Shown here piece after piece: positions 3,178 to 22,722 of a stretch of 64,000 bases of DNA. A program made the translations under genes and the position numbers. The notes beneath the pieces were generated by a model. The model saw only the letters and a program-made list of their open reading frames with translations, ran no database searches and was not told the DNA's origin. Every line of letters begins with the position of its first letter. The stretch's first letter is position 1. This DNA comes from Octopus vulgaris (taxonomy: Eukaryota), in the NCBI GenBank assembly GCA_951406725.2, contig OX597825.1:2356001-2420000 (forward strand), in the 5' to 3' direction.

Positions 3178-3264
3178 TTCCCTGACGAAATGATTTCGTT
3201 GTCTTACATCATTTTTATTCCCTCCGAAATAATCTCCATTCTTCTTTCGAAATATATGTTGGAA
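3178..3264 (+). ncRNA. Degenerate type I hammerhead ribozyme motif in a Penelope-like repeat (element about 3010-3310, between (TA)n tracts)
   Basis: ttcc-CTGACGA-long stem II (aatg/catt, atttcg/cgaaat)-GAAA-tatatg-TT-ggaa. Stem I ttcc/ggaa is intact; the stem II base is broken and the stem III palindrome has one mismatch. Confidence 0.5.
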
Positions 3265-6380: not shown

Positions 6381-7974
6381 TATCTGCAAAATATAGGTCG
6401 ACGTGGGCCATGATTTCTTGATGATATTTAAATTCAGCCGCAACGATCCTAGTTTCTCTCAACAATAATTATCCTGAGCTATATCGCCCACTATGTGATT
6501 TATAAACAGGAATGTGTATTCCGAGGAATATTTGACTGTTCTATCTAGCACGACGATCGGGTTGACAAAAGCTCTATCGTTGACTCAGGGTTATATTCGG
6601 ATTAAAGCGGAGTCGCTAGACATCCAATAACAATGAGAATATTTTTCTTTAGATAATATCCTTTAAAAGATTATTAGAGATAATAGCTTGACGTTGCATT
6701 TCTGGAGATTTAATGGCAGCACTGAATGTTTTAGTAGCTTTATCACTCGATCATAAATTAGTGTTTAGAAGATAGAAACTAAAACTTAGTATGTGTTCTT
6801 TTTGTTCATTATTATTTTTCCTTACTATTCGTTTAAAATAATTTTCCGTTCCGTTCTTCCTCATTCTGTAATTTCTATCGTTGTAATGACATATGTGAAA
6901 TCAGAAAATTTTCAATGTTAAGCTTCATAAAAATAGCGGTCAATTTAAAGTTTCTGTTTCTAGTTCAAAGATAATAATATATAATTAGCATCATTATAAT
7001 CAAATTTTTTTTTATCGGTTTTGGCCTGCAAAAATAAATTATAGTGATTCTAACGATACACAGTTCGTGCAGCAGGCATATTGGAAAGTATTGCATTTAT
7101 GAGAATAGTTACTGGCGTTCATCTGAGAGTGGTGTACACAATTTATATCATTTTGAATATTATTTTATCATATACCACACATACATACATTATTACATAC
7201 ATACTTACATATATACTACATACTTATATACATACATAAATACATGTATACATAATGGCTTAACTATACACAAATATATAATATTGGTAGACTTAATTTG
7301 CCGTCCGATTTCACACCACAGCATAACTCGTGGAGACCATATGCTGAGTAGAGGATGGGGTAAAAACTAAGGCCAGGTCTCCACTTAGAAGCAATTTCTT
7401 GGTAACATATTTTAGTGTATTAACAGTGTGCTATTGGCACTGCTCTGCATCCATTCTGTTCGCCGAAATTCTCTGAATGTTTGTGTGTAAATCTCTACCT
7501 CTCTCCATCTACTTATATCCACATACATGGTAAGTGGTCCTTCTTCACACATGATATATATGTGCGTGTATATGTGTGTGTATGTATAAATGTGTGTGCA
7601 AGTATATGTATGAATATATTCATACATACGCAAACACATACGTACAAACACGCATGTATCAATATATATATATATATTAGATGCGTTTGAATGTATACAA
7701 CTTGAAACTCATTTCTGTTTGTGGAAGACCTTTAAACGTCGATGCTCGACGAATAGAATCTGCGACACATTCAATATAAAGCATAAAGATATGTTCTGAT
7801 GACCACATGATCCAGTAAAGCCACCGGTTTATTTTACGTAAGCATCTGTCTGTTAAGTATACAGCTTCTTCCATGTTAATTCAAGGAGAAGATTTAGGAG
7901 ATTGATAGACAGAAAAATTCATCCTCGAAAGATATCGAGATCCATTACGCGCAACATCCACACATTCAACACAA

Positions 7975-9634: not shown

Positions 9635-9916
9635 ATATATATGTGTGTGTGTGTGTATGTTCATTTGTGTGAGTGTGTATATGTGTGAGTGTATATTTAT
9701 CTATATGCTTGCATATACACATACGAGCACACATATACGTGCATGCATACGCATAAACTAAGGTACTCATAAATACTGATCGAAACTCTCCCGCTGTCTC
9801 TTTTCCGGAAGCGCATGGTAATATCCGTCAATATTTCACGCCATCATATAAATATAACGTAGATTATTTACATTATTTACATTTGATGGATATTTGTCCC
9901 CATCTTGTTTGTTGTT

Positions 9917-9962
9917 AACACAACGTTTCGGCTGATACACCCTCCAGCCTTCTTCAGGTGTC
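9917..9962 (-). ncRNA. Minimal type I hammerhead ribozyme
   Basis: Reverse complement: gacac-CUGAAGA-a-ggcug-gaggguguau-cagcc-GAAA-cg-UU-guguu. Stem I 5 bp, stem II 5 bp, palindromic ACGU stem III. Confidence 0.85.
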
Positions 9963-10000
9963 TTGGGGATTCTCATTCCTAAGGTTCGAAAATTCCTCAA

Positions 10001-10046
10001 GACACCTGATGAAGGCTGGAGGGTGTATCAGCCGAAACGTCGTGTT
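10001..10046 (+). ncRNA. Minimal type I hammerhead ribozyme
   Basis: gacac-CUGAUGA-a-ggcug-gaggguguau-cagcc-GAAA-cg-UC-guguu; predicted cleavage after C10041 (GUC). Confidence 0.88.
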
Positions 10047-11779
10047 AACAACAAACAAGACGAGGACAAATATTCGTGAAATGTAAATAATGTAAATAAG
10101 TTACACAATTCCTCTTTACTTAAATATAGAACTGTATATCCATAAAACAATATTATTCACTATTTAACAGAAAAGCAAATCTAGCACTTCCAAAACTGCA
10201 GTAACAAAATACATCATGCGTTTTGGTTTTAAAAATAGAAACGTAAAATACATATTTCCTATTAAAAGCTTCATCATCAGGACCCTCGTCAGACCTGGGC
10301 GTGCTTCAGAATATTATGGGTGGGAGCAGATTCGTAATAATGCTGCAGTGATATCACCCTTAAGTTTTGCGAAAATATTGTCAATTTAATGTTTCAAAGA
10401 TTGTTTACAAACAGGTAAAAATAGTTGTTCAAAATTTCTATATTTTTGAGCCCCTCCGCCTCTTAATGCCTCAACCTCTCCCTCGGTCCCTTGTTGATTC
10501 TTGATCTCTTATGAACATCCTTTCAAAATTGTTTTAAACACAGGAGATGTTGATTATCCAAAAGATGCTTTCCATCTTTGCCTCCTCGACTCTCCTCTGT
10601 TTTGAAGCATGTAACAAGGTCTAAATTTTAAAGATTACGGCTTTGTGCTTTAGGGTTATGGTATAGGTTTAAGGTGACCAGGCTTAGAATTTATGGTTAG
10701 CGTTTTGAGTTAAGTGAAGAAGAGATGTACTTCTTTCGCAGTATCACGATCTTACTTGTTTTAGACAGAAATATAAAGACATTGTTAAAATATAAATAGA
10801 TTATAAACTCCACCAATTCTAAAACATCGTAGTGTATTCAATTACTATTATCGCACATTATTTTATGAAATTTATCAATTTTAATAACATTATTTTAATC
10901 AATATATGAGCAAACTATTAGGTCTGTCCTATATTTAAACCAAACATATTATAACTTCTGAAGTTTGTGCTGATACTGAAAATTTACGAAATTTATAACA
11001 TTGCTGTAAACGAATTTGATTAACTAACACAAATATTATATTCATAAAAATTCATTAAAATAATTGTAATCTTCTTGACGTAGAAAAGAAATGTTCAAAA
11101 AACTTTTCAATTTCGAATTTTATTTTGTGTATGAAGCTGTCTATGAATGCGCGTATCAAAATGTTGCTATTTCATTGATGCTTCAGAGAACGTTGATAAA
11201 GTGTAAATATGTAGGCCAATGTGGAGATGAGTCAATGTAGGGAGATAGGACTCGCAAGAAGCCTGGCTTTCAGCAAAAAAAAAGTAGATATTTGGTAAAG
11301 TAGTCTTAAATGAAGATAATGAAGACCAGAACTGATACCTACAGAAATAATATTTTCTGAAAGGTAACGTTTAGCAACACTTAGTTCCTTGTAGATTATG
11401 CTGACCAAATACTTTATAGTCACGAGTTCAAAGGGAGGTGAAAATTTTGAAACTACTAAGATGCTTCTGATTCAGGAGGCAAAGATTCCACACCTGTTCC
11501 AATACAAATTATCAAAAGCACCGCGTAAATAGGATTAAAAAGTAAAAGTAGATATTTGTTATAAGATTGACATTATTACTGGTGATTGTGTAATATATTC
11601 TGGACCTTTATGAGTGTGGTGAGGAATAAAACGATCATCTTTTAAATTAATTGTCTCAGCCAGAGAGAAGATGCGCTGAGATTTTCTCTTGTCTATTCTG
11701 ATTCCTTTCAAAATAAATATTCAATACACTAAAGTATAAGACATATTCATTCAGAAGTGCAAAAAAGGACGTAAAAAGA

Positions 11780-21924: not shown

Positions 21925-22009
<85 letters not shown>

Positions 22010-22011
<2 letters not shown>

Positions 22012-22238
22012 CGGAGATGTACTCGCATAGCAAGTAATTTGATCTGAGATCGTGTGCTGAAACGAAAACAATTGCAGCGTGGGAGGTGTTTATAAGCCAT
22101 TTAAGAAACACACAAAAGCCGTTCGATTCACTCCAACATTTAAGTTTAATTTGTCAAAATATTTTCGTCGCTAAAATCCGCGACCTGTTCACTGACAAAG
22201 TCCGTGCTGCATCTAAGAAAGTAACAGTTAGTTCGTCA
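22010..22238 (-). mobile_element. Penelope-like pseudo-LTR-type repeat abutting a long (TA)n tract (21928-22009)
   Basis: Unique-complexity insert between microsatellites, with a hammerhead-fold motif followed by about 140 nt of 3' sequence. Confidence 0.6.
22150..22199 (-). ncRNA. Type I hammerhead-fold motif with variant core GUGAACA (G3:C8)
   Basis: Reverse complement: uuuguca-GUGAACA-g-gucgc-ggauuuua-gcgac-GAAA-auau-UU-ugacaaa. Perfect 7-bp stem I, 5-bp stem II, palindromic AAUAUU stem III. Confidence 0.75.
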
Positions 22239-22722
22239 TATATATGTATGTACGTATGTATGTGTGTATGTATGCATACATGTGTGTATGTATGTACGTA
22301 TTCATGTCCGCACATACGCCTGTGTATGCATGTATGTATGTATGTATGTATGTATGTATGTATGTATATATGTATGTGTGTGTATAAGCACGCACATACA
22401 CTCTATAAAACATAAAGTTATAAACCTGTAGCGATGGATGGATGTTGAAGGTTGTATACATATTTACATATATGTTTGTATAGACGCACACATATATATA
22501 TATGTGTGTGTGGGTGTGTGTTTGTTCCTCTCATCATCGTCTAACCGTGAATTATATATATATAATTATATATATATATAATTATATATGTAGCTACATC
22601 TATACTGACGAGTGCACACACAAATTCAGACGCAGATTCTCTCTCTCTCTCTCACACACACACATACATACAAGAGATATGAAACAATGGCAGTTATTCA
22701 CATCTAGAGACGCGTCTATGTA

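Follow-up and report, generated by a model that had tools for sequence, protein, structure and literature searches.

Hammerhead ribozymes in the pseudo-long terminal repeats (pLTRs) of Penelope-like retrotransposons (PLEs), the nucleotide inserted into their core and natural variants with a U3:A8 pair have all been published. Here, we describe a hammerhead motif of this kind from Octopus vulgaris, located in a stretch of 64,000 nucleotides of assembly GCA_951406725.2 (contig OX597825.1, positions 2,356,001–2,420,000; hereafter the window, whose coordinates are used below). In this motif the core nucleotides 3 and 8 are exchanged, and a G3:C8 pair stands in place of the canonical C3:G8. The motif sits in the pLTR of a young PLE encoding a reverse transcriptase (RT) with a C-terminal GIY-YIG domain. 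It represents a real, high-copy and apparently new core variant of a known ribozyme kind in a known element kind, and a function is likely.

The metazoan PLE hammerheads collected by Cervera and de la Pena in 2014 (PMC4209133; this paper and most of those compared below are cited from the parts of their text accessible to us) resemble the octopus motif in being type I, lying in the pLTR and carrying an extra nucleotide inserted after position 9 and before 10.1. They also share the G10.1–C11.1 pair and a small palindromic helix III, with a predicted dimer; PLE hammerheads are reported to cleave weakly even as dimers. The alignment rows available from that paper show C3:G8 or U3 (two Schistosoma rows with U3:A8 and one U3 with G8) and no G3:C8, unlike the family described here. 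Natural U3:A8 covariants (Perreault 2011, PMC3088659; Schistosoma Cercyon PLEs, PMC4209133) likewise exchange the Watson–Crick pair 3:8 while the rest of the core is intact. In octopus, however, the pair is inverted purine-for-pyrimidine, that is, by two transversions, and is fixed in ~8,500 copies.

The anole Poseidon element PAc (PMC11167929) is also a PLE with a C-terminal GIY-YIG domain, a hammerhead adjoining the start of its open reading frame (ORF), AT-rich targets and two internal RT start sites yielding a tail. Its hammerhead cuts only with its protein, and either C3G or G8C abolishes cutting, while the engineered C3G/G8C double mutant partly restores it (Frangieh 2024, PMC11167929). 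The exchange was thus engineered in PAc and is natural in octopus. Unlike the PAc ORF, which begins in stem II, the octopus ORF has its ATG 57 nt after the predicted cut, and a CX3CxxC linker is present. Non-LTR retrozymes (PMC7229834; bioRxiv 10.64898/2026.07.22.740005), proposed to derive from PLE pLTRs, share the type I hammerhead, the weak helix III and the occurrence in animal repeats; they are head-to-tail non-coding tandems, whereas each octopus copy, solo or inverted, is a fragment of a coding element's pLTR.

Positions 3 and 8 lie at the catalytic centre, where the 2′-OH of G8 is essential; G8C alone costs ~10^5-fold in activity, and C3G partly rescues it (review PMC8495972). In the accessible parts of the literature searched, from which the most relevant survey of PLE hammerhead variants falls outside, G3:C8 appeared only as an engineered rescue and not as a natural pair. 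The supplements of Perreault contain 0 G3:C8 matches in their accessible text, figures and possibly sequence files lying outside it, and ribozymes go unmentioned in the main text of an octopus repeat annotation from 2026.

Architecture of the Motif

The motif consists of the following parts:

22150–22199, minus strand: type I, Penelope-type hammerhead motif with G3:C8 core (fold, covariation, descriptor)
22186–22192, minus strand: core strand GUGAACA, with G3 = 22192, C8 = 22187 and A9 = 22186, followed by inserted G 22185
22199–22193 with 22156–22150, minus strand: stem I, 7 bp
22167–22184, minus strand: stem II (5 bp, 22184–22180 with 22171–22167, G10.1–C11.1) and 8-nt loop II
22166–22163, minus strand: G12–A15.1 (GAAA)
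22158–22163, minus strand: palindromic stem III segment AAUAUU, predicted to pair intermolecularly (double hammerhead)
22156–22157, minus strand: predicted cleavage site after U17 (22157), 22157/22156, a UU site by hammerhead numbering

A preliminary description of this stretch had proposed a type I architecture with a 7-bp stem I, a 5-bp stem II, GAAA, AAUAUU and a UH site, and each of these parts was located within 22199–22150. It had also stated that only two core positions differ from the textbook core; the number is three, as the unpaired G 22185 between A9 and G10.1 was overlooked. U4, G5, A6, A9, G12, A13, A14, A15.1–U16.1 and H17 all match hammerhead requirements. The literal C3 and G8 of CUGANGA are absent, and positions 3 and 8 are Watson–Crick complementary. 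The G 22185 insertion, the G22184–C22167 pair and the AAUAUU palindrome are those of the Penelope type as given in the accessible text of Cervera 2014.

Stems I and II form the minimum-energy fold (z = −3.4; equal stability in 1 of 200 shuffles) and keep pair probabilities of 0.7–1.0 when the whole leader is folded. Both stems fold and covary, stem III exists only as a predicted intermolecular helix, and the structure is open at stem I. A descriptor accepting any Watson–Crick 3:8 pair and requiring stems no shorter than 7 and 5 bp matched none of 300 dinucleotide shuffles of the window; its looser form with stems of 5 and 4 bp matched 6 of 300.

G3:C8 as the Family State

The 227 bp around the motif gave 2,124 first-look candidates in the 2.8-Gb genome, and all 40 that were scored are 100% identical. 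Genome-wide, 1,301 of 1,343 copies with identical flanks carry G3:C8; 30 have G3 with another base at position 8 (17 G, 10 U, 3 A), and the remaining 12 lack G3 (9 A, 3 U) and all keep C8. When the stems were fixed and loop II left free, 5,269 copies had G3:C8, 181 had G3:G8 and 186 were non-G3, in a count limited to these three classes. Among 100 non-G3 copies listed in this context, position 8 is C in 90, G in 8 and A in 2; position 3 changed to C in 14, and C3:G8 is found in none. By these family counts, G3:C8 is the state of the family and not a product of decay.

A generic G3:C8 pattern matched 9,239 times against 683 for its reversed control (~8,550 net), and the same pattern with C3:G8 matched 4,962 times against 654 (~4,300 net). 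G3:C8 is the commonest hammerhead of its descriptor class in this genome, and censuses based on CUGANGA undercount. That such searches miss the family was anticipated in the preliminary description and agrees with our results: the copies fall outside the pattern, and an Rfam scan of the motif returned no hammerhead. Three off-family matches to the G3:C8 pattern (L143–L145) were rejected as chance, their stem I being unmatched.

Variation was examined in 101 copies chosen by means of an anchor that lies downstream of the predicted cut site, namely the 100 that head the list for contig C1 plus one partner; they are not fully independent, as they include inverted arms and some duplicates. Variants above 10% occur at none of 13 core sites, 10 stem II sites, 4 stem III sites and the single inserted site, and at 1 of 14 stem I sites, where U–A changes to U·G with compatible pairing. 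Thus, 1 of 42 core or paired sites varies versus 10 of 52 free sites in the leader, loop and untranslated region (UTR), the latter number excluding 17 anchor sites and one fold-back artefact (Fisher p = 0.02). Loop II varies between subfamilies while stem II is constant. The pattern recurs in contigs from four public runs, labelled A to D by organism, where alternative letters stay below 4% at positions 3 and 8.

Related Families and Origin of the Exchange

A sister PLE (58–59% amino-acid identity, 1,312-aa open frame) carries a homologous motif with C3:G8 at the corresponding position. In further families the core reads CUGAAGA or CUGAUGA, with the same inserted purine next to it and a stem II starting with GUC; at two loci (L210 and L213), the inner stem I is the same as in the window motif. 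These C3:G8 relatives show what appears to be the ancestral state. In an alignment of 17 hand-picked representatives, 85% of the cells pair, and both partners have changed in 8 of 15 pairs, as in 0 of 500 shuffles, a control that overstates the case because the exchange is a single event among related sequences. The 3:8 pair is CG in 11 rows, GC in 6 and unpaired in none. Within the G3:C8 family the outer stem I pairs are retained; in its relatives they mostly are not (70% paired over the helix). Since the six GC rows form one lineage, the alignment points to one evolutionary event rather than six, kept through several subfamilies.

The joint fixation of G3 and C8 over many copies, with stems that covary against the related C3:G8 families, is what the preliminary description had looked for as support. 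Its further argument, that complementarity of the two changed positions suggests selection for function, is weakened by the single origin of the exchange, which retrotransposition then amplified, by the 181 G3:G8 copies and by an A9C change fixed in a young sister family.

Two single loci, L051:1971 (plus strand) and L145:2094 (minus strand), contain hammerhead-like motifs in which the 3:8 pair is U3:A8 and the stem III segment is a 4-nt palindrome. The window itself contains, at 9903–10060, a head-to-head inverted pair of canonical minimal hammerheads with C3 at 10006 on the plus strand and 9957 on the minus strand. They have C3:G8, an inserted A and a 2-nt stem III segment and belong to a different, abundant family.

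Host Element

The window copy and its surroundings are organized as follows:

22010–22552, minus strand: 5′-truncated 3′ end of a Penelope-like element, inserted in (TA)n
22010–22100, minus strand: start of the element ORF within the pLTR, ATG at 22100
22212–22214, minus strand: 5′ wall of most genomic copies, with the likely transcription start at 22214 (copy ends)
21928–22009, no strand: (AT)41 microsatellite at the insertion site

The copy consists of two pieces, 22552–22446 and 22448–22010, with 100% and 98.6% identity to locus L038, and ~510 bp of the 3′ UTR are deleted inside it. The element has a single ORF combining RT with a GIY-YIG endonuclease at the C-terminus, as expected for a PLE, with the motifs YVDD and VYQI...YIGET. 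Its nearest Atlas clusters carry HTH_animal, RVT_1 and GIY-YIG at 0.97; a direct Pfam scan and a PDB search of a 654-aa piece of the ORF gave 0 matches. A Zn-finger-like CX3CxxC linker is found at residue 525 of protein P0001. According to the accessible text of PMC8557442, a CX2-5CxxC linker is a Neptune/Nematis trait among PLEs, and from this trait the element probably belongs to that type.

At locus L079, same-strand motifs at 3242 and 7503, ~4.3 kb apart, flank the ORF, and the first of them continues into the ORF start; at L038, the motif lies downstream of the ORF. Other structural traits of PLEs are present as well, including pLTR tandems, inverted 5′-truncated copies, an optional tail and microsatellite targets. 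The 3′ end abuts a TA-rich microsatellite in 28 of 30 loci read, and many copies have an inverted partner copy with a shorter 3′ end.

The letters of the youngest subfamily at L038 7467 and 7517 are nearly missing from the contigs of the four public runs. Together with the identity of all 40 top matches, this suggests that the lineage underwent a burst very recently. Of 16 inverted pairs examined, 5 (L098, L113, L126, L231 and L244) have arms of unlike loop II type or with different diagnostic letters, and so does a sixth pair, L139, whose arms are 117 bp apart. Such arms look as if copied from two RNA molecules, later mutation being an alternative.

Ends of the Genomic Copies

Sequence upstream of the leader is present in only 4 of the 101 copies. 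The 5′ starts of 36 copies fall at L038 7383–7389 (window 22217–22211), and 18 more alignments stop at L038 7401, where subfamilies differ by an insertion. A non-encoded G precedes 9 of 14 non-inverted copies starting at the wall AG (p = 1.6e-4 against 18% G). An extra 5′ G of this kind is a mark of cap copying. Because the G can be read as a copied cap, transcription likely starts at 22214; the motif would then occupy +16 to +65 of a capped leader, with the ATG at +115. The ORF start at 22100, with 39% identity to the sister N-terminus, lies 57 nt past the predicted cut.

The 3′ ends cluster at L038 7527–7536 (41/101) and 7582–7592 (55/101). These two end points (~22068 and ~22010), ~30 and ~90 nt into the ORF, bound a tail of ~57 bp, in agreement with the tail and the internal RT start sites known from the anole PLE. 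Taken together, the copy ends indicate that most copies arose by reverse transcription of the uncut 5′ leader.

Directly at the wall, 22232–22213 on the minus strand contains a branch-point-like ACTAAC, a pyrimidine tract and a YAG ending exactly at the 5′ wall; all three are conserved in older subfamilies, where the YAG reads CAG or TAG. This segment could be a 3′ splice site like that of Drosophila Penelope, overlapping the proposed start. As a cause of the wall, splicing is disfavoured by the lack of any constant exon sequence in front of the copies; we therefore prefer, without regarding it as proven, transcription initiation at this point with the cap copied as a G.

Proposed Mechanism and Alternative Explanations

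We estimate at roughly 0.68 the probability that the G3:C8 hammerhead of this family retains self-cleavage, at a slow rate and dependent on dimer formation or on the element protein. Transcription from 22214 would give a capped leader carrying the motif and then the ORF. Reverse transcription would begin at two sites inside the ORF start and usually run off the uncut 5′ end, resulting in copies of roughly 150–205 bp. Cleavage, in turn, would decap the ORF-coding RNA or free unit-length RNA from tandem transcripts. Because uncut RNA gave rise to most copies, cutting probably proceeds slowly and depends on a dimer or a protein. Forcing stem III in the monomer costs 5.4 kcal/mol, and the double-hammerhead dimer reaches −27.2 kcal/mol versus −26.6 for two monomers in the same fold and −29.4 for two at minimum energy, a gap of ~2. 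By this estimate the monomer cannot form stem III, therefore either two RNAs or a tandem pair of pLTRs would be required for cutting. With uncut RNA as the main template, a partly active G3:C8 core might be tolerated or even favoured.

A more elaborate version, which we offer tentatively and hold doubtful, is that the G3:C8 core is an active one tuned in rate, working as a protein-triggered double hammerhead whose low rate is selected since uncut RNA is the template. A dimeric RT–endonuclease would bind two RNAs near their ORF starts and join the palindromic stems, and the capped mRNA would be switched off only after the protein–RNA assembly.

Several observations weigh against continued slow cutting. 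G3:G8 copies reach 3.4% of the G3:C8 count, far above the reciprocal C3 change. They are enriched in the oldest subfamily (loci L226–L255), and 26 of 100 listed cluster on one contig arm (contig C16, ~1.2–9.0 Mb). Their divergence is also higher (4.2% vs. 1.8% and 0.8%), and the oldest diagnostic letter occurs in 11 of 15. A tree of ORFs from 20 loci and an outgroup (L141, without an ORF, was dropped) nests a G8 clade among the G3:C8 copies, although its deep nodes are weakly supported and its root is distant. The G3:G8 copies are too common for simple decay, are older on average and form a clade in the family, so sources with a broken 3:8 pair probably were copied. A young sister family (L082–L087, L201) has A9C in 15 of 15 motif matches of one form, while its older copies keep A9; an A9U change has been reported in a functional natural ribozyme (PMC10085705). 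Copied G3:G8 sources and the fixed A9C suggest that catalysis is not under absolute constraint. Starts no more than 5 nt from the predicted cut are seen in only 4 of the 101 copies, without a clear peak, and copies starting there were rejected as a cleavage footprint. In the accessible text on the anole PLE, ribozyme mutants have no effect on insertion in vitro, and there are no reads ending at the cut site (PMC11167929). The overstated shuffle control belongs here as well. Separately, G3:G8 was considered as a fossil intermediate of the exchange: G8 copies are older, but the ORF tree places their lineage within the G3:C8 copies, and with its weak deep support it would be compatible with either order of events.

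Much of this would equally suit a real but catalytically irrelevant fold, kept for protein binding, translation control of the leader or RNA pairing, drift having fixed G3:C8 in a single source lineage that was successful. The origin of genomic copies from uncut RNA, the G3:G8 excess and its clade, the A9C change and the independence of insertion from cleavage in the anole PLE in vitro are all in line with such a fold. However, drift would have to account for two transversions exactly restoring a tertiary pair and for 0 of 13 core sites varying at the subfamily level, and the U3:A8 motifs at two loci of the genome are again complementary; we therefore consider this explanation unlikely, yet serious. 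Constraint on the DNA as part of an internal promoter, with a hammerhead look inherited from ancestors, appears improbable. The motif does lie 15–65 nt downstream of the proposed start, and Drosophila Penelope has an internal promoter with an initiator and a downstream element (PMC2377424), but the changes on both sides of stems I, II and III from one family to another and the U–A to U·G change within the family point to RNA pairing.

That the repeat is a non-autonomous retrozyme or short interspersed nuclear element, cutting tandem transcripts into circular RNAs, is very improbable. Most copies are short and without the ORF, and type I hammerheads define non-LTR retrozymes in the accessible text of PMC7229834; against this, the copies stand alone or in head-to-head inversion, terminate in the ORF start and are pieces of an ORF-bearing element. 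No head-to-tail array was found at the window locus, nor were there head-to-tail non-coding tandem units, each with a hammerhead, that characterize retrozymes. A chance match or a decayed single copy is scarcely credible. The Rfam result could be cited in its favour, as none of the 3 matches at E ≤ 10 was to a hammerhead model and all were microsatellite or hairpin look-alikes, but no Rfam hammerhead family was returned either for the canonical C3:G8 motifs at 9957 and 10006. The shuffled windows without a descriptor match and the identity of the 40 best genomic matches over 227 bp also contradict chance, and the family counts refute decay.

Implications and Other Features of the Window

Fixation of G3:C8 in a large and recently active animal family would confirm by natural means that geometry, rather than base identity, is conserved at positions 3 and 8. 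The genome offers a natural series of G3:C8, G3:G8, C3:G8, C3:G8 with A9C, and U3:A8 in related scaffolds, making the role of PLE hammerheads directly testable.

Elsewhere in the window, 48807–47348 on the minus strand contains two open frames of 197 and 318 aa, which we take, from their motifs, to be pieces of a reverse transcriptase of the long interspersed nuclear element type.
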